Source: Pyrinomonadaceae bacterium (GTDB lineage: Bacteria; Acidobacteriota; Blastocatellia; Pyrinomonadales; Pyrinomonadaceae). From it: a stretch of 64,000 nt of DNA. The translations under genes and the position numbers were made by a program. Where the stretch lies: NCBI GenBank assembly GCA_050250045.1, contig JBFWPK010000014.1, forward strand, positions 20,841-84,840, read 5' to 3'. This document shows positions 11,570-62,378 of the stretch, one piece after another (position 1 is the first letter of the stretch; every line of letters starts with the position of its first letter). The notes beneath the pieces were generated by a model that did not search any database, was not told the DNA's origin, and was given only the letters and a program-made list of their open reading frames with translations.

Positions 11570-12703
11570 CTATCTCCTAAAAAACGCTGGCACCGGGATA
11601 TCTCCTGATTGGCCCCAGGTTACGGTGCGTTGGGAGTAGTTGCTGGCGGACTGGACGATGTACCAGGTGCCGGTTGAGGGGCGCCAGATGGAGTAGTCGC
11701 AGCGGGCGTCGCCGTCGTAGTCGTTGGGGACGGGGATATCGCCGGACTGGCCCCAGGAGATGGGCGTGGCCGGGTAGGTGCCGCTTATGCTTGAGCGGAT
11801 GTACCATTTGCCGTGGGCGGAGTCATAGACGGCGTGGTCGGCGCGGCCGTCGCCGTCGTAGTCGGAGCTGACGGTTGCCCACGTCGCTCCCGATGGGTTG
11901 AAGTTCGGCTGGATGGTGGCCGTAGAACCGTCGGCGCTGTGCTTTACGCGAAAGGTTCGGTCCGACGGGCGAAAGACGCCGAGGTCGGCGCGGCCGTCGC
12001 CGTCGTAATCGGCGGGGGCCGGGATGTCGCCTGCCGTGCTTTGAGAGTTATCGGTGTAGTAACCGGCGGTGCTTGCGTGGATATACCATGTGCCGTTCGT
12101 CGGCCGGAACACGGCCTCGTCGGTCTTGCCGTCGCCGTCATAGTCGGCCGCGGCCATCAGGTCGCCCGATCCGCCGAATTGGTATGTGTAGAACAGGCCC
12201 GTGCTGCTGTGGATCACGTACCAGGTAAAGTTCGACGGCCGCCAGACGGAATAATCGGTTGTGCCGTCGCCGTCGTAATCGCCGGGCACCGGAACGTCGC
12301 CGGGCTCGCCCCACGCCTGGGTTGCCCAGGACGAACCGGTCGCGGGATTGTACACGTACCAGATGCCTGACGAAGGACGCCAGATCGCAAGGTCGGCCGG
12401 CGGTGCGGCCGTCGCGTTCTTGTCTTCCACCGCCAATAGCCGCGACCCGGCGTAGACGTACTCTTTCGAAAGCTGCGGTGTGGACGAAGGCGGCGGCACC
12501 GCCATCGGGTTCCACGAACTCGGAGCGTTCTTTGCAATTTCCTGTCCAAACCAGCCGTACCGCTTCCCGCTGAACGGATCAGTTCGTGGAAACCAGCCGT
12601 TTGAGGCAAATACGCCCAGAGTGATCAATATCACAACGGCGGATGCGGCAATTCCGTAGAGAAGCCTGCGGCGGCTTTCGGGGTTAGACGGGTGCAAGGG
12701 CAT
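11570..12703 (-). CDS. FG-GAP/VCBS-repeat protein with N-terminal transmembrane anchor
   Basis: 377 aa. TM helix (LLYGIAASAVVILITLGVFA). Five or six repeats of GDxPVPxDYDGDGxxDxxVWRPSxGxWY. Confidence 0.85.
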   Translation of the reverse strand: MPLHPSNPESRRRLLYGIAASAVVILITLGVFASNGWFPRTDPFSGKRYGWFGQEIAKNAPSSWNPMAVPPPSSTPQLSKEYVYAGSRLLAVEDKNATAAPPADLAIWRPSSGIWYVYNPATGSSWATQAWGEPGDVPVPGDYDGDGTTDYSVWRPSNFTWYVIHSSTGLFYTYQFGGSGDLMAAADYDGDGKTDEAVFRPTNGTWYIHASTAGYYTDNSQSTAGDIPAPADYDGDGRADLGVFRPSDRTFRVKHSADGSTATIQPNFNPSGATWATVSSDYDGDGRADHAVYDSAHGKWYIRSSISGTYPATPISWGQSGDIPVPNDYDGDARCDYSIWRPSTGTWYIVQSASNYSQRTVTWGQSGDIPVPAFFRR

Positions 12704-12905
12704 GGGATACTCCTTAAGCTAAGTTGTTAGAACTTGTCGGGAAATTTGATGGGGCGAGAGTAGCATCGTCGGATACGTCCCGGCAAGCCCGGTATGGACA
12801 TAAGCCGGGTGGTCGGGCGATAAGACGCTCGGATCGAGGCAAATGCTGGGATCTGTTGGACCTAAGCTGGCCACTGTGCGGCGCTGCCTTGAGAAAGTAC
12901 GGCTA

Positions 12906-13136
12906 AGAGTGGTCACCTTCAGGCGCAGAGTGACGACTTTCAGGCCCAGAGTGACGACTCTCAGGCCCAGAGTGACGACTCTCAGGCTCAGAGCGACGAC
13001 TCTCAGGCTCAGAGTGACGACTCTCAGGCTCAGAGTGGTCAGTCTCACGCTCAGAGTGACAACTCTCACGCTCAGAGTGGTCAGTCTCGGGCCCAGAGTG
13101 ACGACTCTCAGGCCCAGAGTGACTGTTCTACCAGGC
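12906..13136. repeat. tandem array, 11 units of exactly 21 bp (consensus AGAGTGACGACTCTCAGGCCC)
   Basis: Counted directly. Most units contain the palindrome AGAGT-GACG-ACTCT plus a 7-bp linker. Both strands read as open heptad-repeat ORFs, which is an artefact. Confidence 0.9.
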
Positions 13137-13562
13137 GCGGGACGCATTGGCGGTGGGCCGTGTTCTGTGTCTCTGTAAAAAGTTGTTGCGCAAGACCGTC
13201 AAACTATGCGAAATTAGACATGGCTCAAGAGCGGGCCGCGGACATGTTGGATATATCCGCCTCCTGTCTGCCGGCGGGCGGCTTCAAAATTGCCGCCTGG
13301 TCGAGATTCCTTCCTTAATAACCGCGCATTTTCGGTTAGACACCGAACTCAATCTCAGATCTAACGGGCTTGATCGGCTTCAGACCCTCCGTTATCGCGC
13401 ACTGCGCTCAAACGAGGTCTGTCGATCGACCGCACTTCGAGGGCCGATTGGCGAACTGGCGTTCCGAGCTTCACAGGCTTCTGGTTCTTTGTCGCTTAAG
13501 CTTCTGTGACCGGGCACGCCTGTTCATTACAAGCTTTAAGAAAGCTAAGGAAAAGAAAACTT

Positions 13563-14697: not shown

Positions 14698-14764
14698 TTT
14701 TGTCTCCTGTAAGTAATTGCTTCGAATGCAGATTTTAGAACAAAGTACCGTTAAATGTCCACGT

Positions 14765-14947
14765 GTCAGTACCGTCGGCGGTAGCCGATGGTTGAAAGTG
14801 CCGCCAGTATAAGTTTGCGAATCGTCAGGGGGCGGCGTTAAACCAGCGGCTACTGCCGCCGATACTGACAAGCGTAAAACCAGCGGCTACCGCCGCCGGT
14901 ACTGACAAGCGTTAAACCAGCGGCTACCGCCGCCGGTACTGACAAGT
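14765..14947. repeat. repeat family A-prime: one inverted copy (14765-14793) plus 3 tandem 37-bp copies (14837-14873, 14874-14910, 14911-14947)
   Basis: Unit is GTTAAACCAGCGGCTACCGCCGCCGGTACTGACAAGC. The inverted copy is GTCAGTACCGTCGGCGGTAGCCGATGGTT. Related to family A through the CTACCGC core and CTGAC end. Confidence 0.85.
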
Positions 14948-15357: not shown

Positions 15358-15446
15358 AATTTCGTTTTGAGTTAAGTTATAGGTTAAGTTCTATTGTGTC
15401 AAGTACATTGGAACGGGGTCGCCGTTCAGTTCGAAAGGAGCCGCAT

Positions 15447-15520
15447 GCACAAGCCCGCACGAAGTAAGGGCGATATGTCCAACGTCCTAGATATCGCCCT
15501 TACTTCGTTCGGGCTTATGC
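15447..15520. repeat. family C palindromic element (about 74 bp)
   Basis: GCACAAGCCCGCACGAAGTAAGGGCGATAT ... ATATCGCCCTTACTTCGTTCGGGCTTATGC, a near-perfect inverted repeat in the divergent intergenic region. Confidence 0.85.
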
Positions 15521-15571
15521 AAGAAGTGCCAGGTGAAAGCGCGCATTGGATCGTGAAGAGGCCCATACAAT

Positions 15572-18530: not shown

Positions 18531-18899
18531 GTTTAGGCGTGATACGGGCATAGGCTCTTGTCCCACGTGTCCCAGAGGTGTCCCATCATGGCTTGGGACA
18601 GGCTAATTGTTGCATTCACGATCGTTGCGGCCCGAATTGGGCAGTGTCCCACGAGAATTCAAAAAAAAGCGCCACATTGTGCCACAGCTCGTCGTCTTGA
18701 CTCGTCCTGAAAAAAGTTGACACTTTTTGATGGTTCGTCCTCCTATAAGTTTACGTTTTTGGGATAATCCTGGAACTGGTTTACGATCGATGCGGACGCA
18801 CTTCAGATAGATTGTCAAAGAACACTCCGTGAAAGAGTGTATCATACATGGCACACGGAAGGCAACGAATTTGTTCGCTGGGGAATTTCAGGCTGCCTG

Positions 18900-19160
18900 C
18901 TCCAGAGGAGCAGAATGTTTATAGAAACGAACGAAGAAATAAGAACCGAGCCAGCATCAAACACGAACGGATCTACGATATGCCGCTCTCGCGGAACTTC
19001 CGCAGTTTTCGGGCCACGCTTCTATAAACATATCGCTCCGATGGAGCTCACAGCCGCACTTTCTAGAATCACGGCTCTATAAAACATATCGCTCCGATCG
19101 AGCTAACAGCGAAAACTTTGCTGTTCAGTCCGCACTTTTTGGAATCACGGCTCTGAAATA
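18900..19160. repeat. composite repeat region with GCTCC-N3-GGAGC mini-hairpins
   Basis: Module CTCCAGAGGAGCAGAATGTTTATAGAAACGAACGAAGAAATAAGAAC (also at 20270). Two units of ACGGCTCTATAAACATATCGCTCCGATGGAGCTCACAGC. Confidence 0.8.
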
Positions 19161-20269: not shown

Positions 20270-20712
20270 CTCCAGAGGAGCAAGATGCTTATAGAAACGA
20301 ATGAAGAAATAAGAACAGAGCCCCAGCGGGGCAACCTGTCTGTAGATACATCCGTCAATCAATGATCAAAGCTCCGAAGGAGCGGCCTGTCCGACCGTGA
20401 TTTGTGCCACATCAGGACGCTCCTACGGAGCTTGCGGGCCGATTTCGTTGCTGGTGCTACAGACAGCACGCTCCGCCGGAGCTAAATCCCCGCTCCGCTG
20501 GAGGTATATCCGCGCTCCGCCAGAGCTAATCCGGCTCTGGGGTTTAGCCTCAGCGGGGCAGCCTGTCTGTAGAGACATCCGTAATCAATGATCAAAGCTC
20601 CGAAGGAGCGGCCTGTCCGATCGTGTTTTTGTGCCAATCAGGACGCTCCTACGGAGCTTGCGGGCCGATTTCGTTGCTGGTGCTACAGACAGCACGCTCC
20701 GCCGGAGCTAAA
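20270..20712. repeat. composite repeat region: 54-bp module shared with 18900, then two 163-bp direct repeats (20324-20486, 20551-20712)
   Basis: The two 163-bp copies are about 95% identical by eye. Each carries GCTCCGAAGGAGC, GCTCCTACGGAGC and GCTCCGCCGGAGC hairpins. Confidence 0.85.
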
Positions 20713-20749
20713 GCCGCTAGAGCTTGAACTCTGAACGCCGTGTGGTACA

Positions 20750-22382: not shown

Positions 22383-22577
22383 TGTCCCGTAGGGACACCC
22401 GGTAATAGCCCGGCGATTTATCGCTGGGTAAGGCGCGTTGGATTGTGAGTCCCTTGGGGACGGTTGAAGATTCCAATGTTTACGTTGTTTCAGCCATCCC
22501 ATTGGGGACTGGCGCAATCTCCGTCCGTCTTTCCCACCGATGAATCGGTGGGCTATTTTCACACGTCCCTTCGGGAC
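22383..22577. repeat. cluster of short REP-like hairpins (GTCCC-loop-GGGAC class)
   Basis: TGTCCCGTAGGGACA (22383-22397), CCCGGCGATTTATCGCTGGG (22409-22428), GTCCCTTGGGGAC (22449-22461), CCCACCGATGAATCGGTGGG (22533-22552), GTCCCTTCGGGAC (22565-22577). Confidence 0.75.
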
Positions 22578-22771
22578 TCTTTCAGTTTTGACACTGACTC
22601 TAACGGCGTGGCTAGCGAAACCAAGTCTATTCTTATCCACACACTCGCAAAGACTGACCCTCCACGCCTCTGAACGGCGTGCGTTTGCGAAACCGGTGAT
22701 TCCGGTTTGGCAAAGCGCTGTGTTAATCTTTCCGAAAAAATAGTTCGTAGATCGACAACCTAACTAAAAAT

Positions 22772-24743: not shown

Positions 24744-24870
24744 GTCAGAACCGCGTCGAGCGGTAGCGACTGGATTCTTTCATCGCCGCTGCCACAAGAA
24801 CCCAGTCGCTATCGCTCCCGGTTCTGACAATCAAGGGAAGAACCCGGTCGCTGCAGCTTCCGGTTCTGAC
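24744..24870. repeat. three family A elements: inverted (24744-24777), direct (24798-24828), direct (24840-24870)
   Basis: GTCAGAACCGCGTCGAGCGGTAGCGACTGGATTC, then GAACCCAGTCGCTATCGCTCCCGGTTCTGAC, then GAACCCGGTCGCTGCAGCTTCCGGTTCTGAC. They fill the whole intergenic gap. Confidence 0.9.
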
Positions 24871-25840: not shown

Positions 25841-26674
25841 TTACAAATGGATAGTGGATAGTGTTTGAGCCAACAGAATCGGGCGGCTTGGAGCACAGTC
25901 GGACTCGAACGGGGCGATCTGGAGGTTCAGCAGGTATTCGCCGTCCGGGACTTCGTTCGGAGCGTAGATCAGTTCGGTAATTGTACTGGTCTTTCTGGTT
26001 TCCGCATTTGTTTCAAAACCCCCTTCGTCAACTTTCCAAAACAGTCGGTGATTTAGGAGCTTGCCGTCATCGAAAATGCGGTCGATCGAAGGCAGATCGG
26101 TGAGCAAATGTTTGATCCCGATCTCGACGATATAACTCATCGCGTCCATCGCAAAATATGGCGGAATATACGACTCGCCGTATTCTCTTGTCAGCTTGGA
26201 ATCGTCGTTTGGAAGCGTGCGGATGACTAAGGCCCTGTCGGTCGCGATGGACTTGTGATCGCCGCGTTCAAAGAACCCAGTCGCTACCGCTCCCGGTTCT
26301 GACAGGGCCGATTCGAGCACCTTTCGGGTTAACACGCTTTCGCCGTCGATCTTTTCTGGTGAGACCGAAACAAGCCGGGCGGGCATTAGCACATCGGGCA
26401 GACAATCGCGGACGGAAATTCGTGCGTGCGTGATGTGGCCGACGCATTCTGTGTGCGTGCCGCTGCAGTGCGGGATGAAAGCGTATTGTTCAAAATTAAC
26501 GCTGCCGCCCCGCCGAGTGTCACCGATCAGCGTTCCGGCTTCGACGGGTTTAGAGGCCGCTCGTTCGACGCCGTAAGCATTCGGCTGCGGCCCGTTGAAA
26601 CGGAGCGGGATCGAGATGTCGATAGGGTCATTCAGATCGTAACTTTTACCGTTGAATTGCAGTGAATTGTTCAT
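25841..26674 (-). CDS. cyclase-family protein, candidate kynurenine formamidase
   Basis: 277 aa. Cyclase-type metal motif region HCSGTHTECVGH. Adjacent to kmo/kynU. Contains a family A repeat in frame. Confidence 0.65.
   Translation of the reverse strand: MNNSLQFNGKSYDLNDPIDISIPLRFNGPQPNAYGVERAASKPVEAGTLIGDTRRGGSVNFEQYAFIPHCSGTHTECVGHITHARISVRDCLPDVLMPARLVSVSPEKIDGESVLTRKVLESALSEPGAVATGFFERGDHKSIATDRALVIRTLPNDDSKLTREYGESYIPPYFAMDAMSYIVEIGIKHLLTDLPSIDRIFDDGKLLNHRLFWKVDEGGFETNAETRKTSTITELIYAPNEVPDGEYLLNLQIAPFESDCAPSRPILLAQTLSTIHL
26283..26313. repeat. family A element inside the cyclase gene
   Basis: GAACCCAGTCGCTACCGCTCCCGGTTCTGAC, translated as SEPGAVATGF. Confidence 0.9.
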
Positions 26675-26755
26675 CAGGAACTTTGCGCATTAGCACCTCA
26701 TACGGACACCGGGGTTTGAGGAGACACTCAGTTTCTGTGATCCAATCTTAGACGT

Positions 26756-27088
26756 CTAAGACTTCAACATCTTCCAGATTTCGGCATCGACTTTTTCCAT
26801 ATCATCATTGGATAGCCTGCCGAGTGTTTTCAGAATTCGTTTCTTGTCAATGGAGCTCATCTGAAAGATCATAACAACGGATGTCAAATCCAAGCCGTTT
26901 TCTGCTGACGGCTCGATCTGAACAGTGAAATTGAAGCGGATCGCGTTTCGGTTTGACGTAATCGGTGCAATCATTAACATCGGTTCGCCTGCGATGTCCG
27001 TCTGAACGGCGACGGCCGGCCGGCGACCGCTTTGTTCGCGCTTGTCACTCGGCGGCAATCCAACGAGTAACACGTCGCCGCGCGCCAT
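26756..27088 (-). CDS. MazF/PemK-family type II toxin
   Basis: MARGDVLLVGLPPSDKREQSGRRPAVAVQTD...MIAPITSN. About 110 aa from the ATG at 27088. Confidence 0.8.
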   Translation of the reverse strand: MARGDVLLVGLPPSDKREQSGRRPAVAVQTDIAGEPMLMIAPITSNRNAIRFNFTVQIEPSAENGLDLTSVVMIFQMSSIDKKRILKTLGRLSNDDMEKVDAEIWKMLKS

Positions 27089-27309
27089 TAATTGTCCTCC
27101 TCCAGAGTTGCTTCGAAGCGGGTATAATCTTGTTCGCTCGCAGCTTCCCATTGGGCGAACTCAGCAAGCATATCTTCGTCCGCGTCAGTCTCTATCGTAA
27201 TGCGGACTCGTTCATGCTCTTTCAGTTCTCGCGGCACGGTGGAAAGCGGTTTGAAAATGCCGTTTTCGTAAATTGCCTCTACCGTAGTCATATTTCCAGA
27301 TTTTATCAT
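27088..27309 (-). CDS. DUF104-type antitoxin
   Basis: MTTVEAIYENGIFKPLSTVPRELKEHERVRITIE. Its stop overlaps the toxin start. The true start may be 27291. Confidence 0.65.
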   Translation of the reverse strand: MIKSGNMTTVEAIYENGIFKPLSTVPRELKEHERVRITIETDADEDMLAEFAQWEAASEQDYTRFEATLEEDN

Positions 27310-27674
27310 AGGTTTTGGTGCTCGTCGTTGGTGATGTTCGTCTGATTTGAGTCGGCTGGATGAGAAAACTCCACGATCAATTCGCTATTGACCTCAAAAA
27401 TTGTTTTTCCATTTAGCGATTCGATTCCCCAAGGCTTTTTTGTATCAACTCGCGTAGTCAGTGGATTCTGCATAGTCGGTTTATTGAGAACTTCGCAACC
27501 AAGGACTCCATCTACGGGATATTCACTATTTCGATCTAAATTTTCAATGGAAAAGATCGCATCTTTGTCACGGAAAACGTCAACAAATCCACTTGCGTCG
27601 CGGAATTCGCACTCAACAAAGCTAGGACCCGTATCGTCAATACATCTGGTTATACTTACTTTTATCCCAAACAT
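27306..27674 (-). CDS. hypothetical protein
   Basis: 122 aa. AT-richer. Overlaps the kmo stop by 13 nt. No family recognised. Confidence 0.45.
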   Translation of the reverse strand: MFGIKVSITRCIDDTGPSFVECEFRDASGFVDVFRDKDAIFSIENLDRNSEYPVDGVLGCEVLNKPTMQNPLTTRVDTKKPWGIESLNGKTIFEVNSELIVEFSHPADSNQTNITNDEHQNL

Positions 27675-29131
27675 TCGTCAATGTCCTTCAAATCTAGAAT
27701 CACTTCTTTGATATCTATTTCAGCCACGCTTTCAGTGTTCGCACAAACCTGCATTAAAAACCGATCCTGAGCGTTTCCTTTTTCTTTCGCTACAGAATAC
27801 GGCAGATCTTCGCGGAATGTGACCATCGAATATTTCGAGAAATAGTCGGGAAAGGTTTGCTCCAGTTTCGTTTCGAGTTCGCGTTTACGTTGGAAAACCG
27901 GGTCGGCGGTGGCATCTCGCATTTCGTAGAAATTTTCCTCGGCCATGTCGGCTATGGCATCCGTATTTATCTTGCGTAGTTGGCCGTACTTTTCGAACAC
28001 AAATTCCCAATCAACTATAGGCCCAGTCGCTACCGCTCCCGGTTGTGACAAGAGCGAGTCGAGCACGCGGACGTCTTCAAAGGCGCAGTTCATCCCCTGT
28101 CCGTAGAACGGAACGACGGCGTGGGCCGAATCGCCGAGGAGCAGCACCTTGCCTTCGACGTTCCACGGCCAGCATTTAACGGTGCCCAGGTTGCCGGTCG
28201 GGTTGGTGAAGAAGTCTTCGACAAGCGTCGGCATGAGCGGAACGGCGTCGGGGAATTCGCGGGTGAAGAACTCTCTCAGCGAAGACTCATCGTTAAGGTC
28301 CTCGAACGACGGCTCGAAGGCGGAAACACGAGCGGTAGTGAGTGTGTCGTCCGCGGGCGACGCAGAAGAGACACCCTCGCTACCGCTCAGGTTTCCGCCT
28401 GTGTGGGCAAGGAACAGCGTGCAGGTGAAGCTGCCGTCGAAATTCGGCAGGGCGATCATCATGAACTTGTGCCGGGGCCAGATGTGGAGGGCGTTTTTTT
28501 CGAGTTGAAATAGATCTTTGTTCGACCCCGGCAGGACGCCGGCGTTCCGGGGAGGAATGTGAAGTTCCTTGTATCCGTGTTCGAGAAAAACCTGCGACCA
28601 CTGAAATTCAGGCAGATCGCGTTCCATCGCATCGCGTACCGCCGAACCGGCGCCGTCGGTCGCGATAACAGTGTCTCCACGGATCGTTCGACCGCTTGCA
28701 AACGACACTTCGCCGCTGGCAAGGTGGAAATCGGTACAGCGTTCGTTAAAAATAAACTGAACATTCGGATATTTCTCGGCCTCATTCATCAGAGCGATAT
28801 TCAGGCCGGCACGTGAGACCGAATTTATGTATTCGCCTTTGCGGCCGCTGTAGGGGAGCAGTTTTGTTTCGCCAGTCAACGTGTGGATCATTCGCCCGTA
28901 CATCGGCACGGCCTCGGCCAGCATGTATTCATCCATCCCGACCGCGCGCAACGCCGCGATGCCGCGGTCGGACAGAGCGAGATTGATCGAACGCCCGGCA
29001 GCAATAGCTTCGGTTCGCATATCAGGCCGCGCCTCAAAGACGTTGACCGCCATGCCGCGACGAGCGAGATAGATCGCGAGCAGCGAACCTGCAAGCCCAG
29101 CACCAATGATAATCACTCTTTGCTCAGGCAT
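27662..29131 (-). CDS. kmo: kynurenine 3-monooxygenase
   Basis: 489 aa. FAD motif IIGAGLAGSLLAIYLARRG, then DGAGSAVR and LLGDSAHAVVPFYGQGMNCAFED. Carries two in-frame repeat insertions. Confidence 0.92.
   Translation of the reverse strand: MPEQRVIIIGAGLAGSLLAIYLARRGMAVNVFEARPDMRTEAIAAGRSINLALSDRGIAALRAVGMDEYMLAEAVPMYGRMIHTLTGETKLLPYSGRKGEYINSVSRAGLNIALMNEAEKYPNVQFIFNERCTDFHLASGEVSFASGRTIRGDTVIATDGAGSAVRDAMERDLPEFQWSQVFLEHGYKELHIPPRNAGVLPGSNKDLFQLEKNALHIWPRHKFMMIALPNFDGSFTCTLFLAHTGGNLSGSEGVSSASPADDTLTTARVSAFEPSFEDLNDESSLREFFTREFPDAVPLMPTLVEDFFTNPTGNLGTVKCWPWNVEGKVLLLGDSAHAVVPFYGQGMNCAFEDVRVLDSLLSQPGAVATGPIVDWEFVFEKYGQLRKINTDAIADMAEENFYEMRDATADPVFQRKRELETKLEQTFPDYFSKYSMVTFREDLPYSVAKEKGNAQDRFLMQVCANTESVAEIDIKEVILDLKDIDECLG
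28020..28049. repeat. family A element inside kmo
   Basis: GGCCCAGTCGCTACCGCTCCCGGTTGTGAC, translated as QPGAVATGPI. Confidence 0.85.
28319..28399. repeat. family B inverted doublet (81 bp) inside kmo
   Basis: GGCGGAAACACGAGCGGTAGTGAGTGTGTC - 22 nt - ACACCCTCGCTACCGCTCAGGTTTCCGCC. Encodes residues 245-271 (GGNLSGSEGVSSASPADDTLTTARVSA). Confidence 0.88.
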
Positions 29132-29140
29132 CGGTATTTA

Positions 29141-29221
29141 GGCAGAAACACGACCGGTAGGGAGTGTGTCGCTTCCTTTTTCGCCGTCACGGGCACACTC
29201 GCTACCGCTCGTGTTTCCGCC
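29141..29221. repeat. family B inverted doublet in the kynU-kmo intergenic spacer
   Basis: GGCAGAAACACGACCGGTAGGGAGTGTGTC (29141-29170) - 23 nt - CACACTCGCTACCGCTCGTGTTTCCGCC (29194-29221). Confidence 0.88.
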
Positions 29222-29226
29222 TCCCA

Positions 29227-30573
29227 TCACACGCATTCTTTAAGAATCTCTGCGAATTTATTTACATCGCCGAAAGAATTATACAGCGGCACGGGCGCGA
29301 CGCGGATAACGTCCGGTTCGCGCCAGTCGGCGAAAACGCCGCGTGCCGTTATCGCGTCGAACAGAGTTTTGTCCGCATTCTTTACGCGGATGGAAAGCTG
29401 ACAGCCGCGTGCCTTTGGGTCGGAGGGCGTGATGATCGAGATCCGTTCATTGCCTATTTCGTTGATCAGCGATTCCAGATAGCCGGTGAGCTTTTCGGAT
29501 TTTGTTCTTAGGGCCGGCATTCCGGCCTCATCGAAGATCTCCAGCGAAGCACGCAGCGCGGCGAGTTGAAAAATTGGTGGATTAGAGATCTGCCAGCCTT
29601 CCGCGCCTTCAAGCGGTTTGAATTCAGGCCCCATCAGAAAGCGCGTTTCCTTGTCGTGTCCCCACCAGCCGGCGAAACGCGGCAAATCGAACGAATGAGC
29701 ATGGCGTTCGTGTACAAAGATGCCAGCGATGCCGCCCGGACCGGCGTTTAGATATTTGTACGAGCACCACGCGGCGAAATCGACGTTCCAATCGTGCAGC
29801 TTCAGTTCGAGATTGCCTGCCGCGTGCGCACAGTCAAAGCCGACGACGCAGCCTTTGCGATGTCCCGCCTCGGTTATCGCCCGCATATCGAATGCCTGGC
29901 CGGTGTAATAATTGACGCCGCCGAGCAGGATCAAGGCGACGGCATCGCCTTCGCGGCCGATAGTTTCGAGTATGTCATCGGTCCGCAATGTCGATTCACC
30001 GTCGCGCGGTGCGAGTTCGATCAACGAGTCAGAACCGGGAACGATGGCGACTGGGTTCCCTGATGGCGTGGAATCGAAAAACCCAGTCGCTATCGCTCCC
30101 GGTCCTGACATGGGCGCCGTCTTGTAGCCGTGGAAGGCCAACTGTGACTCTACGGCGTACTGATCGGAAGGGAACGCGCCTTTTTCGATGATGATCTTGT
30201 AACGCGCGCGCGTTGGTCTATAAAACGAGATCATCAGTAGGTGCAGATTGACCGTCAGTGAATTCATCGCAACGACCTCGCCTGCTTTTGCACCTACAAG
30301 CCGCGCTAACGGTTCGGTGACGAATTCATGATAGGGAAGCCATGGATGCCTGGCATGCAAATGCCCTTCCACCGCAAGTTCTGCCCAGTCATCGAGTTCC
30401 TGTTCGATATAAACGCGTGCTGTTTTGGGCTGGAGGCCAAGGGAGTTGCCGGTTAGGTAAACAGCCTCATTGCCGTCAACTCCGCGCGGAAAGTGAAAAC
30501 GGCTGCGAAAAGGCGCAAGAAGATCGCCGGCGTCCATTTCAGCAGCGGGTTTGAGTATCTGTTCAGGCATCAC
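29227..30573 (-). CDS. kynU: kynureninase
   Basis: 448 aa. YLTGNSLGLQPK and WCSYKYLNAGPG (PLP lysine region). Carries an in-frame family A doublet. Confidence 0.93.
   Translation of the reverse strand: MMPEQILKPAAEMDAGDLLAPFRSRFHFPRGVDGNEAVYLTGNSLGLQPKTARVYIEQELDDWAELAVEGHLHARHPWLPYHEFVTEPLARLVGAKAGEVVAMNSLTVNLHLLMISFYRPTRARYKIIIEKGAFPSDQYAVESQLAFHGYKTAPMSGPGAIATGFFDSTPSGNPVAIVPGSDSLIELAPRDGESTLRTDDILETIGREGDAVALILLGGVNYYTGQAFDMRAITEAGHRKGCVVGFDCAHAAGNLELKLHDWNVDFAAWCSYKYLNAGPGGIAGIFVHERHAHSFDLPRFAGWWGHDKETRFLMGPEFKPLEGAEGWQISNPPIFQLAALRASLEIFDEAGMPALRTKSEKLTGYLESLINEIGNERISIITPSDPKARGCQLSIRVKNADKTLFDAITARGVFADWREPDVIRVAPVPLYNSFGDVNKFAEILKECV
30028..30109. repeat. family A inverted doublet (82 bp) inside kynU
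   Basis: GTCAGAACCGGGAACGATGGCGACTGGGTTC - 20 nt - AAACCCAGTCGCTATCGCTCCCGGTCCTGAC. Translated as GPGAIATGFFDSTPSGNPVAIVPGSD. Confidence 0.9.
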
Positions 30574-30578
30574 GTTAT

Positions 30579-31589
30579 TCAGACGAATTGGGACCGATCC
30601 AGATCAAGCCAGTTGAGCGCCGCTCCGTGGAGCAGCATCGCCTTTGTTTCGTCATCGTACAACATTGAGTCAATAAGCTTTCCCGGTTCGAGCTCGCCAA
30701 GCGGAAAGGGATAGTCCGTGCCGAGCATAACCTGGTCCGCCCCGGCGAGCTTAATCAAAAAATCGAGCGCGGCCGGTTCGTGTACGAGCGAATCGAAAAA
30801 CATACGGCCCAGATATTTGCTGGGCCTGTGCGGGTTGTCGACGGCGCACAGGTCGGGCCGGACGTCGAAGCCGTGATCGATGCGCCCCAGGGTTGCGGGA
30901 AACGATCCGCCGCCGTGGGCGAAGCAGATGCGAAGATTCGGACACTTCTCCAACGTGCCCGAGAATATCAATGAACAGATCGCACGCGAAGTTTCCGCCG
31001 GCATTCCGACAAGCCACGGGAGCCAGTATTTTTGCATTTCAGCCTGGCCCATCATTTCCCACGGATGGACAAAAACAGCCATGCCGAGATCTTCACAGGC
31101 TTTGAAAAATTCAAAAAACTGAGGCTCGCCAAGATTTAGTTGATTGACGTTAGTCCCGATCTGAACGCCCGCCATGCCGATCCGTTTACAGTGCTCAAGC
31201 TCCTTGATAGCGAGTTGAGTGTCCTGCAACGGGACCATTCCAAGCCCGACAAATCGCGTTGGGAATTCGCTGACAGATTCGGCGATATTCTCATTCAGAA
31301 ATCTTGCGATCGCCGCTCCGTCATCCGGTTTCGCCCAGTAGCTGAACATCACGGGCACGGTCGAAAGCACCTGCACATTTACTCCGAAGCCGTCACATTC
31401 CTCGATCCTTTTTCCGGCGCTCCAGCAGTTGTCCTCGATCTCGCGAAAAAAGTGGCCGTCGTCTTTCAGCATCCGCGCGCACCCTGGGCCGGTATGTTCA
31501 AGCTGGATAAATCCGCCGTAACCAAACTTGTCTTTCCAATTCGGAATATCTTTCGGAAGGATGTGCGTATGAACATCGATCTTTAGCAT
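30579..31589 (-). CDS. 2-amino-3-carboxymuconate-6-semialdehyde decarboxylase (amidohydrolase_2 family)
   Basis: 336 aa. MLKIDVHTHILPKDIPNWKDKFGYGGFIQLEH closely mirrors the animal/bacterial ACMSD N-terminus. Confidence 0.88.
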   Translation of the reverse strand: MLKIDVHTHILPKDIPNWKDKFGYGGFIQLEHTGPGCARMLKDDGHFFREIEDNCWSAGKRIEECDGFGVNVQVLSTVPVMFSYWAKPDDGAAIARFLNENIAESVSEFPTRFVGLGMVPLQDTQLAIKELEHCKRIGMAGVQIGTNVNQLNLGEPQFFEFFKACEDLGMAVFVHPWEMMGQAEMQKYWLPWLVGMPAETSRAICSLIFSGTLEKCPNLRICFAHGGGSFPATLGRIDHGFDVRPDLCAVDNPHRPSKYLGRMFFDSLVHEPAALDFLIKLAGADQVMLGTDYPFPLGELEPGKLIDSMLYDDETKAMLLHGAALNWLDLDRSQFV

Positions 31590-33722: not shown

Positions 33723-33796
33723 TGCAGAAGCCCGCACGAAGTAAGGGCGAAATGCGAGGTTGAACGTATCGCCCTTACTTCGTGCGGGCTTCTGCA
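33723..33796. repeat. family C palindromic element
   Basis: TGCAGAAGCCCGCACGAAGTAAGGGCGAAAT ... TATCGCCCTTACTTCGTGCGGGCTTCTGCA, 9 nt after the CocE stop. Could act as a terminator. Confidence 0.85.
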
Positions 33797-38538: not shown

Positions 38539-38608
38539 ATCAATCGACTTTCGTGCTTTTCGCGTGTTTCGTGGGCAACCGATCTTGCCGAGCGAACTGG
38601 CCCGCCGC

Positions 38609-39667
38609 TCACGCAGCGGGTTCTGACATATCGATCACGAACCGATATCGCACATCAGACCTGATCGTCCGGTCGTAGGCTTCTTCGATGCGGCTTGGGT
38701 CAATAACTTCGACATCGGATGTGATGTTATGTTCGGCGCAGAAATCGAGCATTTCCTGGGTTTCGGGAATGCCGCCGATCAGCGAGCCCGAAAGCGTTTT
38801 ATTTCCGAATATCAGCGAAAGATTGTGGACGGCGTTTGGGCTCGGCGGCACGCCTACAACGACCATCGCGCCGTTTAGGCCGAGGAGGTTGATGTACGGA
38901 TTGACATCATGATCGGCTGAAACCGTGTCGAGGATCATATTGAAAGTTCCGGCAAGCGGCGCAAGATTGGCCGGATCGCTAGTGACGACAAAATGGTCGG
39001 CCCCAAGTGCCTTCGCGTCGGCTTCTTTTGACGGTGATGTGCTGAAGATCGTCACCTCGGCTCCCATAGCTTTTGCGATCTTTACGCCCATGTGCCCAAG
39101 GCCGCCGAGGCCGACGATGCCGACCTTCTGTCCCGGCCCGACTTTGAATCGTTTCAACGGCGAATATGTCGTAATGCCCGCACACATCAGCGGAGCAATG
39201 CCCGAAAGGTCACCTTCGGCCTTGACCTTTAGGGCATAATTCTCATCTATCACGTAATTATTCGAATACCCGCCATACGTTTTCGTCACGCGGTCCATCT
39301 CAGTGCCGTTGTAGGTATATGCGGCCTGTTTAGCGCAAAACTGTTCCTGGCCACCCTTGCAGCTCGGGCACTCGCGGCACGAATCGATAAAACATCCGAT
39401 GCCGGCAATGTCGCCAACCTCAAATTTTGTGACCTCGCTGCCAACCTGCGTGACCTTCCCGACAATTTCATGTCCCGGAACGAGCGGATAATTTGTCGGC
39501 ATCGAATCTTTCCATTCGTTTCTTGCCTGATGAATGTCGGAATGACATATCCCTGCGTACTCAATATCGATCAATATATCGTGCGGCCCGACCGCTCGGC
39601 GTTGAAAATCAAATGGCACAAAGTCACTTCCTGCTTCGTGGACCGCATAACCTTTAGTTTCTATCAT
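38609..39667 (-). CDS. zinc-dependent NAD(P) alcohol dehydrogenase (cinnamyl-ADH/YahK-like)
   Basis: 352 aa. GICHSDIH, the structural-zinc CxxCxxCxxxxxxxC block, and GLGGLGH. Confidence 0.9.
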   Translation of the reverse strand: MIETKGYAVHEAGSDFVPFDFQRRAVGPHDILIDIEYAGICHSDIHQARNEWKDSMPTNYPLVPGHEIVGKVTQVGSEVTKFEVGDIAGIGCFIDSCRECPSCKGGQEQFCAKQAAYTYNGTEMDRVTKTYGGYSNNYVIDENYALKVKAEGDLSGIAPLMCAGITTYSPLKRFKVGPGQKVGIVGLGGLGHMGVKIAKAMGAEVTIFSTSPSKEADAKALGADHFVVTSDPANLAPLAGTFNMILDTVSADHDVNPYINLLGLNGAMVVVGVPPSPNAVHNLSLIFGNKTLSGSLIGGIPETQEMLDFCAEHNITSDVEVIDPSRIEEAYDRTIRSDVRYRFVIDMSEPAA

Positions 39668-44050: not shown

Positions 44051-45592
44051 TCAGATGCCTGTCAGTTTGACGCAAACGTTCTTTTCTTCCGTGAAAAATC
44101 TCAATGCCTCGAAGCCGCCTTCGCGGCCGAGGCCGCTGTCTTTCATGCCGCCGAACGGGGTTCGCAGGTCGCGGAGGAGCCAGCAGTTTATCCAGATGAT
44201 GCCGGATTCGAGTGCGGCTGATACGCGGTGTGCGCGCGAAAGGTTTTCGGTCCAAACGGTTGCCGACAGGCCGTAGCGGACGCTGTTTGCGTAGCCCAGG
44301 ACCTCGTCTTCGGTGTCGAAGGGCATTATTGTGACGACCGGGCCAAAGATCTCTTCGAGGTTTGTACGGCAATCGTGCGGAAGATCTTCTATCACGGTGG
44401 GTTGGATGAACCAGCCGGTGAGTCGTGACTGCTCATCGGGCACACTCCCTACCGGTCGTGTTTCCGCCTTTTTTTCTCTGCGTCTTTGCGACTCTGCGGG
44501 AAGATCTACCGCTTTCCCGCCGCACAATATTGTGCCGCCTTCGCTCTTTGCAAGTTCGATGCATGACGTTATCTTGTCAAAGTGCTGCTTTGAAACTATC
44601 GCACCGACATCGGTGTCGGCATCAAGAGGATCGCCGACTTTTAAGGAAGCAACGCGTTCGACAAAATCGCGTTTGAATTTTTCATATATCGGCCGCTCGA
44701 CAAATATCCGCGAACCGCAGAGACAGATCTCGCCTTGATTTGAGAACGATGAGCGGACGGTAGTCGATAGCATTTGCTCATAATCGCAGTCGGCGAAGAT
44801 AATATTCGGATTCTTGCCGCCGAGTTCGAGCGAAAGTTTCTTGAACATCGGAGCCGCCGTGCGGGCGATCTCCTCGCCGGTCTTTGTGCCGCCTGTGAAT
44901 GAGATCGCCTTGATATCCTTATGAGCAACGATCGCCGAGCCGACCTTTGGGCCCGTGCCGTGGACGATATTCAAAACGCCCTCTGGGAGACCGGCCTCGA
45001 TGCACAGCTTAGACAGCATATAAGCCGTCATCGGCGTGACCTCGCTCGGTTTGGCGACGACCGTGCATCCGGCCGCCAGAGCCGGTGCAATCTTCCACGT
45101 AAAGAGATAGAGCGGCAGATTCCACGGCGAGATGCAGCCGGCGACGCCCATTGGCTGGCGAAGTGTGTAGTTGATCGCCTTAACACCGCCGGGCAGTGAA
45201 GTATCGTGTGATTCGTTTGCCACGTGTATCGCGGCGGTTGCATAAAATCGGAAATTCGCCAGTGCACGCGGAATATCGACAGAGCGCGCCAGCGAAACCG
45301 GCTTGCCGTTATCGACACTTTCGGCCATGGCCAGATCGTCCAGATCACGCTCGATCAGCGTTACCAGTCGCATCAGCGTTTCAAATCGATGTTCAGGCGG
45401 CGTAGCGGCCCACGCCGGAAACGCGGCCCGGGCGGCATCGGCCGCGAGATTGACGTCGCGATCGTCCGAGTCAGGGATCAGTGAATAGACGCGGCCGGTG
45501 GCCGGCTCAAAATTGTCCAGATATTCCGCGGAAGCCGGCGACACGAGTTCGCCGCCAATATAATTTTCGATCGTGAGCATATTTTGAAGCAA
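44051..45592 (-). CDS. NAD-dependent aldehyde dehydrogenase (candidate 2-aminomuconate-6-semialdehyde dehydrogenase)
   Basis: 513 aa. ELGGKNP and FSNQGEICLCGSR catalytic-Cys region. Contains an in-frame family B repeat insertion. Confidence 0.88.
   Translation of the reverse strand: MLQNMLTIENYIGGELVSPASAEYLDNFEPATGRVYSLIPDSDDRDVNLAADAARAAFPAWAATPPEHRFETLMRLVTLIERDLDDLAMAESVDNGKPVSLARSVDIPRALANFRFYATAAIHVANESHDTSLPGGVKAINYTLRQPMGVAGCISPWNLPLYLFTWKIAPALAAGCTVVAKPSEVTPMTAYMLSKLCIEAGLPEGVLNIVHGTGPKVGSAIVAHKDIKAISFTGGTKTGEEIARTAAPMFKKLSLELGGKNPNIIFADCDYEQMLSTTVRSSFSNQGEICLCGSRIFVERPIYEKFKRDFVERVASLKVGDPLDADTDVGAIVSKQHFDKITSCIELAKSEGGTILCGGKAVDLPAESQRRREKKAETRPVGSVPDEQSRLTGWFIQPTVIEDLPHDCRTNLEEIFGPVVTIMPFDTEDEVLGYANSVRYGLSATVWTENLSRAHRVSAALESGIIWINCWLLRDLRTPFGGMKDSGLGREGGFEALRFFTEEKNVCVKLTGI
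44441..44468. repeat. family B element inside the aldehyde dehydrogenase gene
   Basis: CACACTCCCTACCGGTCGTGTTTCCGCC. It lies within an extra segment of about 24 aa (ESQRRREKKAETRPVGSVPDEQS) just before the conserved GWFIQPTV. Confidence 0.85.
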
Positions 45593-45827: not shown

Positions 45828-46002
45828 GATCAGTGGGTAGTGGGTCAGTTTGAAATCGAAATTGGTTCAACTGCACAAGCCCGCACGCAGTAAGGGCGAT
45901 GTCCGGAACGTTGAGTGTATCGCCCTTACTGCGTGCGGGCTTGTGCACTATCCATTCTTTCCAAAATCCGCGAATTGATTTCAAGCTGACCCACTACCGA
46001 TC
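45828..46002. mobile_element. MITE-like 175-bp long inverted repeat with a family C palindrome (45872-45947) at its centre
   Basis: The outer arm GGTAGTGGGTCAGTTTGAAATCGAAATT matches the reverse complement of the other arm, AATTGATTTCAAGCTGACCCACTACC. The inner arm is TGCACAAGCCCGCACGCAGTAAGGGCGAT. Confidence 0.7.
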
Positions 46003-49517: not shown

Positions 49518-50768
49518 CTATTTGATCTTTCCGTACTTACGCAGGACCTTCAGCGTCGGTTCGAGAGGCAGGGCTTCGACGGTCCGGTTTTCTTTGCCCG
49601 TAACGGTTCGAGCTCGGAACAACGAATTATAGATCGCCTCCTCGCTTGCTTCGATCACCGCGAGGAACAGCGGTGAGATCGCGTCGTTGGCAACAACGCT
49701 TGTGCTTCGTGTTCTCGTTCCGGCCGCGAGCGGTTTGATGCGGTTTTCGGCGGCGGTTGAAAATGCTATGGCGTAGTCTCCACTGCCGTTGGTCATTGCC
49801 GAACCGGTCCGGGCGAGGCCGGCCATTGACCGTTCGGCCAGGCGATCGAGCTGCCGATGATCCAACGGCGCGTCGGTCGCGATCACGATTATGATCGAAC
49901 CATCAGCTTTGTCAGAACCGGGAGCGATAGCGACCGGGTTCTTTTCCGGCGAAGAATTGAACCCATGCCCGCGCTCGGGTTTCTGCACCGCTTCCTTTAA
50001 GTAAAACTTACCCAATTCCTCACCGACAGGTGCTCCGTTTATCGTCAAAACACCGCCAAAATTGGACTGAACAAGTACGCCGACCGTGTAGCCTCCGAGC
50101 GATGCCGGCAACTTCCGCGACGCCGTGCCGATGCCGCCTTTCCAGCCGAATGCGACAGTGCCGGTTCCGGCCCCGACCGCACCCTCTTCGACCGGCCCGC
50201 TTTTGGCATTTTTCAGAGCCGCAAATACGTCGTCACGGGTGATGTGCCGTCCGCGGATATCATTCAAAAAGCCATCGTTCGTCTCCGCCACGACCGGATT
50301 TATCGATTGAACATTTTCATTGCCGGGCAGGGCGAGCATGTAATCGAGCAGGAAATCAGCGGTCCGTGGAACGGCCAGTGTTGATGTGAGGATGATCGGA
50401 GTTTCGATCTCGCCGAGTTCATTGACTTGCGTCGATCCGGCGAGTTTGCCGAACCCGTTTCCAACAAATACCGCTCCCGGTACCTTCTCCTGGAACAAGT
50501 TGCCGCCGTGCGGAACTATCGCGGTCACGCCGGTGCGGATGTTCTCGCCCTTTACTATTGTCGTGTGGCCGACCGCTACGCCCACAACATCGGTGATCGA
50601 ATTTAGCGGGCCGGTCGGAAGAACTCCGACGTTCAGGCCGATGTCTCGGGCTCGCGGGCGAGCTTGGGGTTCCAGCCTAAGCTGGCCAGCCGCCGGCGGA
50701 ACAAGTGCCGCAAATAGCAGGCCGACGATCAGAATGATCGCTCCGGCGACGTTCGTCATAATTCTCAT
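49518..50768 (-). CDS. P1/DmpA-family aminopeptidase (Peptidase_S58)
   Basis: 416 aa. Signal peptide. GVAVGHTT and DGSIIIVIATDAPL. Contains a family A repeat in frame. Confidence 0.85.
   Translation of the reverse strand: MRIMTNVAGAIILIVGLLFAALVPPAAGQLRLEPQARPRARDIGLNVGVLPTGPLNSITDVVGVAVGHTTIVKGENIRTGVTAIVPHGGNLFQEKVPGAVFVGNGFGKLAGSTQVNELGEIETPIILTSTLAVPRTADFLLDYMLALPGNENVQSINPVVAETNDGFLNDIRGRHITRDDVFAALKNAKSGPVEEGAVGAGTGTVAFGWKGGIGTASRKLPASLGGYTVGVLVQSNFGGVLTINGAPVGEELGKFYLKEAVQKPERGHGFNSSPEKNPVAIAPGSDKADGSIIIVIATDAPLDHRQLDRLAERSMAGLARTGSAMTNGSGDYAIAFSTAAENRIKPLAAGTRTRSTSVVANDAISPLFLAVIEASEEAIYNSLFRARTVTGKENRTVEALPLEPTLKVLRKYGKIK
49911..49941. repeat. family A element inside the DmpA-like gene
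   Basis: GTCAGAACCGGGAGCGATAGCGACCGGGTTC, translated as NPVAIAPGSD. Confidence 0.9.
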
Positions 50769-59008: not shown

Positions 59009-59249
59009 TGCAAAAGCCCGCTTAAGGTGCAAAAGCCCGCTTAAGGTGCAAAAGCCCGCACGAAGTAAGGGCGAAACATTCAACGCCATGCAGAAGCCCG
59101 CACAAGTAAGGGCGAAACATTCAACGCCACGCAGCGGCCCCGCACGAAGTAGGGCGAAACATTCAACGCCATGCAGAAGCCGCGCACGAAGTAAGCGGCG
59201 AAATATTCAACGTTTCGATCAAGACCTTACTACGTGCGGGCCTGAGCAT
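59009..59249. repeat. tandem array of family C half-elements closed by one inverted arm
   Basis: Two truncated units and four full units of TGCA(A/G)AAGCCCGCACGAAGTAAGGGCGAAACATTCAACGCCA (about 43-bp period), then ..CCTTACTACGTGCGGGCCTGAGCA. Confidence 0.85.
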
Positions 59250-59324: not shown

Positions 59325-59555
59325 AACCATTCTCAGTTAACTAAAACTCATTCCCACAATTGTGAAACTCTTCTGAGAACTCAAAAAGTCACCCTCACAA
59401 CTCCAAAACCCGCTCTCACAATTGTGAAAGCCATTCTCAGTCAACCAAAAGTCGTTCTCAGTTAACCAAAAGCCATTCTCACAATTGTCAGAATCATTTT
59501 CAGTTAACCAAGAGTCATTCCTAGAACTTCAAAAGTCCTTCTCACAGGTCAAAAC
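59325..59555. repeat. tandem array, 11 units of exactly 21 bp (AT-rich; TTCTCA core)
   Basis: Example units are GCCATTCTCAGTCAACCAAAA and CCCGCTCTCACAATTGTGAAA. Units alternate between palindromes TCACAATTGTGA and AGTTAACT. Confidence 0.88.
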
Positions 59556-62319: not shown

Positions 62320-62378
62320 TAGCGTCGGGTATCACCCGACGAAAGATGTCAAAAAAGGGTTCCGTCCCTGAAAGGGAC
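62297..62378. repeat. REP-like hairpins downstream of the Y1 transposase gene
   Basis: GTCCCTGAAAGGGAC (62297-62311), GTCGGGTATCACCCGAC (62324-62340), GTCCCTGAAAGGGAC (62364-62378). Confidence 0.85.

Follow-up and report, generated by a model that had tools for sequence, protein, structure and literature searches.

In a stretch of 64,000 nucleotides from the genome of a Pyrinomonadaceae bacterium (assembly GCA_050250045.1, contig JBFWPK010000014.1, positions 20,841 to 84,840; hereafter called the window) short hairpin repeats are inserted in frame into genes that encode enzymes, among them several genes of the kynurenine pathway. The repeats belong to two related families which were named A and B. 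We consider it likely that both families are non-autonomous mobile elements of the kind known as repetitive extragenic palindromic (REP) sequences and their hairpin-forming doublets (REPINs), that they are mobilised by a Y1 transposase, and that the copies within genes are those which survived selection.

In-frame repeats in the window

The reference sequence of family A is the 31-mer GAACCCAGTCGCTACCGCTCCCGGTTCTGAC, which is the reverse complement of the hairpin strand described below. With up to three mismatches allowed it is found five times in the window, starting at 24798(+), 26273(+), 30028(-), 30079(+) and 49911(-), compared to zero copies expected from 100 shuffles. A threshold of four mismatches adds the copies at 28019(+) and 24840(+), and one more copy with a 3-nt indel is located at 24744-24777(-). 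The window contains eight units of family A, four of its subfamily A' and five of family B (arm CACACTCGCTACCGCTCGTGTTTCCGCCT), numbers which bear on copy number for these 64 kb only. Five of the eight family A units are intragenic. Repeats are read in frame at six sites, which are distributed over the genes for a cyclase, kynurenine 3-monooxygenase (KMO, two sites), kynureninase (kynU), 2-aminomuconate-semialdehyde dehydrogenase and an S58 peptidase (Table 1).

An initial annotation of the window had described the 31-mer as an in-frame insertion in three neighbouring kynurenine-pathway genes. This is confirmed for the cyclase, KMO and kynureninase, in the last case with a doublet. All three host open reading frames (ORFs) lie on the minus strand and run through the repeat without interruption. 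The peptides quoted for them are correct, as are the intergenic copies at 24744-24870, the 20-nt spacer of the kynU doublet and the remaining coordinates; the cyclase copy had been placed at 26283-26313, a slip of 10 nt from its position at 26273-26303. Direct reading of the sequence also agrees with the annotation in that two of the six possible frames contain stop codons, namely f1 (TGA) and r3 (TAG), and the other four are open.

Table 1. Repeat units, host genes and neighbouring genes; coordinates refer to the window unless another locus is named.
Feature	Position	Strand	Description
Putative cyclase/kynurenine formamidase-like host gene	25841..26674	-	PF04199
Family A singlet in cyclase/kynurenine-formamidase-like gene	26273..26303	+	Exact consensus match; gene-strand reading LSEPGAVATGF, frame r2
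KMO host gene	27662..29131	-	E 2e-84 to PDB KMO
Family A singlet in KMO	28019..28049	+	Four mismatches; reads SQPGAVATGPI, frame r2
Family B inverted doublet in KMO	28318-28346, 28372-28400		Arms given; reads TGGNLSGSEGVSSASPADDTLTTARVSAF; DNA fold z -5.8
Family B intergenic doublet	29140..29222		Between kynU and KMO; fold z -7.2
Kynureninase host gene	29227..30573	-	E 4e-131 to human KYNU
Family A inverted doublet in kynureninase	30028-30058, 30079-30109	-, +	20-nt spacer; reads SGPGAIATGFFDSTPSGNPVAIVPGSD, r2 then f2; DNA fold z -5.9/-6.9
Family B unit in 2-aminomuconate-6-semialdehyde dehydrogenase gene 44051-45592(-)	44441..44469	+	Reads KAETRPVGSV
Family A unit in Peptidase_S58 (DmpA-like) gene 49518-50768(-)	49911..49941	-	Reads KNPVAIAPGSD, frame f2
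Family A intergenic cluster, three units	24744-24777, 24798-24828, 24840-24870	-, +, +	Doublet made up of the first two; located between a cytochrome-c-like ORF and an epimerase/DUF1731 gene (start 24877)
Subfamily A' intergenic cluster, four units	14764..14946		Foot GTCAGTA, perfect hairpin CCGGCGGC-GGTA-GCCGCTGG
Toxin-antitoxin gene in the window	26756-27151	-	
Toxin-antitoxin genes in the syntenic locus L115	6307-6669, 9344-9983, 13475-13969		

Repeat-encoded residues are derived insertions

The residues encoded by the repeats are absent from every distant orthologue and from many close ones, and are therefore derived insertions. As the initial annotation had proposed, the host proteins were aligned with orthologues and solved structures, and related genomes were compared for presence and absence of the repeats. 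Distant orthologues are empty, the PDB alignments are gapped at the repeats, and close relatives are polymorphic at the kynU, KMO and cyclase sites. The observation thereby withstands the attempt at refutation which the annotation had itself suggested.

Human KYNU lacks an equivalent of residues 152-182 of kynureninase, which correspond to the doublet. Among 64 kynU loci compared, insertions are confined to close, Pyrinomonadaceae-like relatives, and all orthologues with 63% identity or less have the short loop FHG[FY]DPxxSLIEL. An empty site is also found in the syntenic relative L115, whose kynU is 84% identical and reads FHGYD-KDGLIEL at this position. The sequence of the window was also identified as part of JBFWYY010000013.1, which belongs to a metagenome-assembled genome of the Pyrinomonadaceae (GCA_050185915.1). 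The identical kynureninase protein is present in two independent read-set assemblies, and its insert is therefore no assembly artefact.

The KMO of P. fluorescens shows a gap of eight residues opposite QPGAVATG. At this site family A is found in the window only, and other relatives are either empty or carry other families. The family B doublet of KMO adds about 22 residues in comparison to the KMO structure in the PDB; it is common to four close relatives and absent from all distant ones. Both KMO sites, like the cyclase site, are empty in every distant orthologue. The residues at the cyclase site are missing from most orthologues, and L115 carries an A-like doublet at the same site. The dehydrogenase, which is closest to 2-aminomuconate-6-semialdehyde dehydrogenase (E 1.5e-140), has its family B unit inside an insertion of about 21 residues relative to PDB 7bzv and to 12 of 12 homologues in the fetched loci, and the repeat of the S58 peptidase at 49911 lies within query residues 254-286, a stretch without counterpart in PDB 2drh. 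The host ORFs are full length, and outside the insert they are 70-85% identical to their orthologues.

For KMO and kynureninase the alignment gaps at the repeats fall between conserved blocks of the solved homologues. In an AlphaFold2 model of kynureninase, the insert is predicted to be a disordered loop; residues 153-180 have a pLDDT (predicted local distance difference test) of 28-41 and no secondary structure, and are placed between the helix 135-147 and the strand 184-187. Judged from these alignments and the model, the in-frame repeats would most likely add extra surface loops to their host enzymes.

Reading frames of intragenic copies

The use of reading frames was surveyed in loci from other genomes, which together amount to about 0.77 Mb and contain 133 copies of family A. 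The loci were selected for a perfect 24-mer, so that older, decayed copies are under-represented. Inside stop-free ORFs of at least 200 codons are 41 of the 133 copies (31%), among them a few orthologous duplicates. Frame r2 (SEPGAVATGF) accounts for 24 of them, f2 (NPVATAPGSD) for nine and r1 (VRTGSGSDWV) for eight, while f3 (TQSLPLPVL), a frame which is open but rich in Leu and Pro, is avoided with no case at all. The statement of the initial annotation that only two frames are used is correct for the window, where r2 and f2 are found (the copy at 49911 included), but does not extend to other genomes, where r1 is used as well.

The possibility that r1 is only an antisense shadow of f2 was considered and rejected. 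Seven of the eight r1 hosts have strong Pfam matches in the r1 frame (radical SAM, phosphoenolpyruvate (PEP) carboxylase, ABC-F, the succinyl-CoA ligase alpha subunit SucD, beta-lactamase family, M14 peptidase and NamZ), and two doublets combine r1 and f2 within single ORFs.

The spacers of intragenic doublets are 2 mod 3 for r2 with f2 (17 and 20 nt) and 1 mod 3 for r1 with f2 (19 and 61 nt), which are the values at which each of the two arms can be read in an open frame. Deletion of the unit restores a long ORF for four of the 92 copies outside long ORFs, and one of these four merely follows a stop codon. Possible gene disruptions thus amount to at most three of the 92. Taken together, the frame usage, the spacer lengths and the small number of disruptions suggest that the repeats are translated, and the inserts are probably kept in the mature proteins.

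Architecture of units and doublets

Unit boundaries were derived from an alignment of 131 family A copies in other genomes. The conserved unit of about 29 nt has sharp boundaries and reads GTCAGAACCGGGAGCG[G/A]TAGCGAC[C/T]GGGT on the hairpin strand. It consists of the 5' foot GT-CAGA-A, the stem CCGG-GA-GC / GC-GA-C[C/T]GG and a GGTA loop. The 8-bp stem is imperfect due to two central (tandem) G.A mismatches. Several subfamilies keep the foot GTCAG[AT]A and exchange the stem with compensating changes, as seen for CCGGGAGC/GCGACCGG, CCACCTGC/GCGGGTGG, CCGCCTGC/GCGGGCGG and CCGGCGGC/GCCGCTGG. The stem of family B is ACACGAGC/GCGAGTGT, behind the foot CGGA. A unit at 38601-38628 of the window with a GTCAGAA foot and a different hairpin (CCCGCTGC-GTGA-GCGGCGGG) represents a further subfamily of the same superfamily.

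Among 21 distinct variants both sides change in seven of the eight stem pairs, and 77% of the cells are paired, a share that falls to 62% in shuffles and to 24-44% after sliding of the partner, whereby the structure was derived from these same sequences. Calculated with nearest-neighbour energies, a single unit folds no better than shuffles (z about -1.4). Since this fold is weak and the stems co-vary, the hairpin is supported by covariation and not by energy. The description of the element as palindromic in the initial annotation is therefore adequate as far as an imperfect 8-bp hairpin with covariation is concerned, but strong folding is a property of the doublets and not of the single unit.

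Close pairs of units are in (-,+) orientation with the feet outward in 16 of 16 cases, with spacers of 7-98 nt. These doublets of 80-130 nt fold strongly (z about -5 to -7.2). No target-site duplication was found around the 16 doublets, whose flanks share 0-1 nt, and the flanks of the 131 units contain no strong target motif but weak A/T preferences only. A replication-strand bias is likewise not seen, as the orientation of 82 singleton units is unrelated to the local GC skew (40 versus 42).

Several family A doublets (in the loci L004, L028 and L006/L063) have inverted repeats also in the DNA immediately beyond their two feet, as in GGCGACAGAA[...]TTGTGTCGCC. These inverted outer flanks are either longer arms of some subfamilies or the result of insertion into pre-existing palindromes.

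Distribution and association with a Y1 transposase

An exact 24-mer search for family A in a collection of species-representative genomes gave more than 114 stretches. All of them are from Pyrinomonadaceae, Blastocatellia or Acidobacteriota labelled 'Chloracidobacterium', and several genomes contain multiple loci. In the loci L080 and L045 an ORF of 171 amino acids is located between inverted family A units. With 32.6 and 23.6 bits, respectively, the two proteins score above the Pfam Y1_Tnp cut-off of 23. The L080 protein comprises the motifs NHVHVVV, SPWAD and YVNNEQ, and the L045 protein NHVHCVV and YVINGQ. A protein search gave 2,893 homologues of the Y1 protein, nearly all of 169-171 amino acids, which often carry the JGI label 'REP element-mobilizing transposase RayT'. 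A search for solved structures related to it by sequence gave chance matches only.

Five more homologues on long contigs of other genomes (L200-L204) have a unit 20-50 nt before the start codon and an inverted copy 5-115 nt after the stop codon. Units made of GT-CAGA-A plus a hairpin are therefore present on both sides of the Y1 gene in seven of the seven loci examined. The unit flanking the most diverged Y1 gene (L203, 64% identity) has diverged together with it and reads GTCAGAACCGGGAACG[C/T]AGTGACCGGGT. From this association we infer that the Y1 protein moves the family A units. The view of the initial annotation that the repeats are mobile and not native coding sequence is upheld by their absence from orthologues, by the inverted doublets and by the flanking Y1 transposase genes.

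In L204 a DUF2200 gene contains in its 5' end the whole arrangement of family A unit, Y1 gene and inverted family A unit (1400-2120). A segment of about 40 nt from the start of this gene (MxxHRIFATSFAGV...) is found as a duplicate on either side, and MSEKNPVATAPGSDKYKRVFAMSFASVYP is now the beginning of the downstream copy. This duplication may be a footprint of the autonomous element moving.

Proposed mechanism

According to the reading which we prefer, two inverted units with their feet outward form a doublet that folds into a long hairpin. Units would be moved as single-stranded DNA, most likely by the 171-amino-acid transposase of the HuH-Y1 type, which would belong to the 'class 3' TnpA-Y1 enzymes, and transposition of this type would leave no target-site duplication. 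Insertions would land anywhere. Survival within a gene would require a length that is a multiple of 3 nt, a stop-free frame with small flexible residues and a permissive surface loop, and the surviving inserts would be transcribed and translated as 8-30 extra residues.

Several observations weigh against this reading. No Y1 or RAYT (REP-associated tyrosine transposase) gene was found in the window, neither with Pfam on the ORFs beside the repeat clusters nor by tblastn with the Y1 protein. The Y1 association was seen for family A only, and not for B, C or the other families that occupy the same loops. The foot GT[AG]G of canonical REPs is absent, GTAG being found only across the junction of loop and stem (GGTAGC), and the weak folding of the single unit belongs here as well. 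The AlphaFold2 model of kynureninase is of moderate quality overall (mean pLDDT 72.5). Finally, random insertion with subsequent selection does not obviously explain why the kynU insertions cluster in one loop and why the ACMSD gene remained empty.

Recurrent occupation of the same protein loops

The last point concerns the extent to which the same loops are occupied. In the 120 closest kynureninase homologues (71-100% identity) the loop at one kynU site is extended in 75 proteins, with at least eight classes of peptide motifs, whereas almost no insertions are found outside this loop. The motif classes include the A-type GAVATG/PVATAPG, PPYEGGV/GGVAAASADGVV, NYSWPL, PPAxAGG, PPEGGT, PAKAGT, YNKLKF and AETQRR. 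Where the inserts can be read at the DNA level they are different hairpin or doublet families, and some are hybrid or nested; in L123, for example, A is combined with A', and in P0002 with PPYEGGV. The relatives also differ in the families which they carry at the two KMO sites and at the cyclase site. The ACMSD gene (30579-31589), which is a neighbour of kynU, contains no repeat insertion in the window or in 19 close relatives.

It is conceivable, although we regard it as rather doubtful, that the elements home to a few sites. These would, for instance, be positions beside or inside resident hairpins or a Y1 target that is retained after excision, so that the families succeed one another at the same place. 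The REP-like hairpins of many families in the Pyrinomonadaceae would then be steered actively to a limited number of protein loops and not merely tolerated there, a proposal to which we give the same tentative standing. The concentration in one kynU loop, the change of families at the KMO and cyclase sites, the hybrid inserts and the empty ACMSD gene all agree with such a targeting. However, the insert junctions of different families are offset by anything from a few nucleotides to a few codons, the left boundaries in particular by several nucleotides or codons, and the flanks of the 131 units lack a strong target motif. The same pattern could arise at a very permissive loop into which insertions arrive at a high rate. 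Because of the variable junctions and the missing target motif, a high flux of insertions which is filtered by selection at very permissive loops is favoured.

Possible functions and other explanations

Genes of the kynurenine branch harbour five of the window's six in-frame sites, with KMO represented twice and the cyclase, kynU and 2-aminomuconate-semialdehyde dehydrogenase once each. The nominal P for this enrichment is about 1e-4 under a length-proportional null, in a test that was post hoc. The idea of a pathway-wide target in the initial annotation did not hold, as copies are also found in further genes of the window and, in other genomes, in many housekeeping genes. Specificity for the kynurenine pathway as a general rule is rejected because copies are located in many unrelated hosts.

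The enrichment could be taken as a hint that the intragenic copies have been preserved for a benefit, which might be that of flexible linkers or that of hairpins in the mRNA by which translation or stability is adjusted for genes of the kynurenine pathway. The retention of the family B doublet of KMO in five relatives and the small residues encoded in the frames used would be in line with this. We nevertheless find a useful role improbable, since units are also present in many unrelated genes and in intergenic DNA, presence and absence are highly polymorphic among close relatives, the families are interchangeable at a given site, and the enrichment in the window is a post hoc observation.

Doublets of 80-130 nt resemble elements in which a spacer separates two terminal inverted repeats. 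They might therefore be classical MITEs (miniature transposable elements with inverted repeats) that are moved by a DDE transposase recognising terminal inverted repeats of about 30 nt, and the association with Y1 would be incidental. The inverted arms are present, but a target-site duplication is absent around all 16 doublets, and for this reason a DDE-type MITE is rejected. In addition, units flank all seven Y1 genes examined, with co-divergence in L203, and each arm is a conserved foot plus hairpin as required by Y1 enzymes. We judge this explanation to be very unlikely. That the segments are removed before the protein matures, like introns or inteins, or that the hosts are pseudogenes, found no support and is close to untenable in view of the frame and mod-3 constraints, the absence of stop-containing frames within intact genes, the full-length and conserved host ORFs, and a unit length that is far too short for self-splicing and comes without any such features.

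Other repeats and neighbouring genes in the window

A third family, C, with the arm TGCACAAGCCCGCACGAAGTAAGGGCGAT forms near-perfect inverted doublets at 15446-15521, 33723-33796, 45872-45947 and 59047-59180, the last of which is a tandem cluster. All copies of family C are intergenic and located just 3' of genes, and none is intragenic in the window, unlike those of families A and B. Because of the near-perfect inverted doublets and their position family C resembles terminators. An Rfam scan of the whole window found nothing at the repeats. Its only two matches are to the small RNA Acido-Lenti-1 at 22383-22428(-) and 22533-22578(+), which score 41 and 53 bits against a gathering score of 37 and are oppositely oriented, about 100 nt apart.

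Ten copies of a 21-nt tandem array are found at 12859-13152 inside the ORF 12719-13198(-), and five repeat modules of 135-147 nt at 11657-12291 in a neighbouring ORF. Both look like repetitive protein domains that are unrelated to the hairpin repeats. Upstream of the gene 59599-62331(-) there is an array of 21-nt TTCTCAGTTAACCAAAAGTC-like units with internal inverted symmetry (59330-59537), which may be a set of binding sites. A region of short ORFs contains another dispersed repeat, CTCCAGAGGAGCAGAATGTTTATAGAAACG, which has an inverted partner, and two direct copies of 133 nt that are 93% identical (18891-19055, 20270-20322 and 20357-20715). Toxin-antitoxin genes (PemK/MazF; PhD/PIN; PIN_3) are interspersed among the genes of the kynurenine pathway, and their positions differ between the window and L115.

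Comparison with known systems

In-frame selfish DNA is best known from Rickettsia and has often been linked to weak selection in small intracellular populations. The Rickettsia palindromic elements (RPEs) are established as in-frame repeat insertions in protein genes (reviewed in PMC10969869). Intragenic REPs of the GTAG and CGTC types were described by Di Nocera et al. (2013, PMC3733652) in Opitutus, Thauera, Xanthomonas and others; their dimers encode 20-30 residues, and different REPs are located at about the same site of the Xanthomonas recB gene. In-frame REPs inside RAYT genes were reported by Quentin et al. (2018, PMC6006769). The same study defined the class 3 TnpA-Y1 proteins, which have about 178 amino acids and the motifs NHVH, W[TA] and Y----Q (YV[VI][AENY]EQ), and which are found in Planctomycetes and Acidobacteria. 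Their genes have weak, atypical hairpins at their flanks, the 5' foot of which is CnGA, and about 600 such structures were counted in Solibacter usitatus (PMC6006769).

The system described here is similar to class 3 with respect to the phylum, the length of the Y1 protein (171 amino acids), its NHVH, WA and YVNNEQ/YVINGQ motifs and the weak hairpins that flank the gene; the CnGA foot corresponds to CAGA in family A and CGGA in family B. The third residue of the Y motif in the L080 protein departs from the published class 3 consensus. The published description is brief and based on few complete genomes, and its class 3 section is silent on in-frame copies, on doublets and on the Pyrinomonadaceae family.

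With the REP/REPIN-RAYT systems of E. coli and Pseudomonas the repeats share the short imperfect palindromes, the inverted doublets that form long hairpins, the position of units at the flanks of a Y1 gene, the coexistence of several families in one genome and the lack of a target duplication. However, REPs are mainly extragenic, while about a third of the copies sampled here are intragenic, and the Y1 protein remains below the NCBIfam cut-offs for RAYTs (REP_Tyr_transpos, 25-28 bits versus 80) and for IS200 (23-31 bits versus 55). Because of the RAYT score and the missing GT[AG]G foot, the assignment to a canonical REP/RAYT system is rejected.

Like intragenic REPs and RPEs, the repeats are found as in-frame monomers and dimers which add about 10-30 residues to unrelated known enzymes and are absent from orthologues, and in those cases the inserts are thought to lie in loops or linkers. 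The sequence families and the phylum are different, and an occupation of the same loop on the scale seen in kynureninase has not been reported for them. By their description the elements are also set apart from RPE-1, which is about 100-150 bp long and resides in reduced intracellular genomes, in contrast to units of 29 nt and doublets of 80-130 nt in hosts that appear to be free-living, from soil and similar samples. The choice of RPEs and REPIN doublets as the closest precedents in the initial annotation is thus upheld. Its claim of novelty stands in so far as a full-text literature search gave nothing on in-frame repeats for Pyrinomonadaceae, nor at such frequency, but in-frame intragenic REPs (PMC3733652) and Y1-associated repeats of the type seen in Acidobacteria (PMC6006769) had already been published. 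New are the lineage, the link to a class 3 Y1 protein, the high intragenic fraction and the scale on which different families occupy the same loop.

Significance

The repeats represent in-frame selfish DNA on a large scale in genomes that are mostly from soil and other environmental metagenomes, and the host genes include those of central metabolism such as sucD, PEP carboxylase and methionine synthase. For the annotation and alignment of acidobacterial proteins they are a warning, as repeat DNA accounts for many apparent lineage-specific inserts in Acidobacteriota, and contigs are prone to break at such repeats. The class 3 TnpA-Y1 proteins are a plausible and so far barely characterised mobilising enzyme, and the repeats offer a test bed for the choice of targets by Y1 transposases. 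They also amount to many natural experiments on the tolerance of individual protein loops for 10-30 additional residues. If the hairpins are indeed channelled into a small set of loops, this would imply a mechanism of targeting or replacement, for example Y1-mediated peel-and-paste into or beside resident hairpins. The turnover of repeats would then be a major source of variation in loop length in the proteomes of these bacteria, possibly concentrated in particular pathways.

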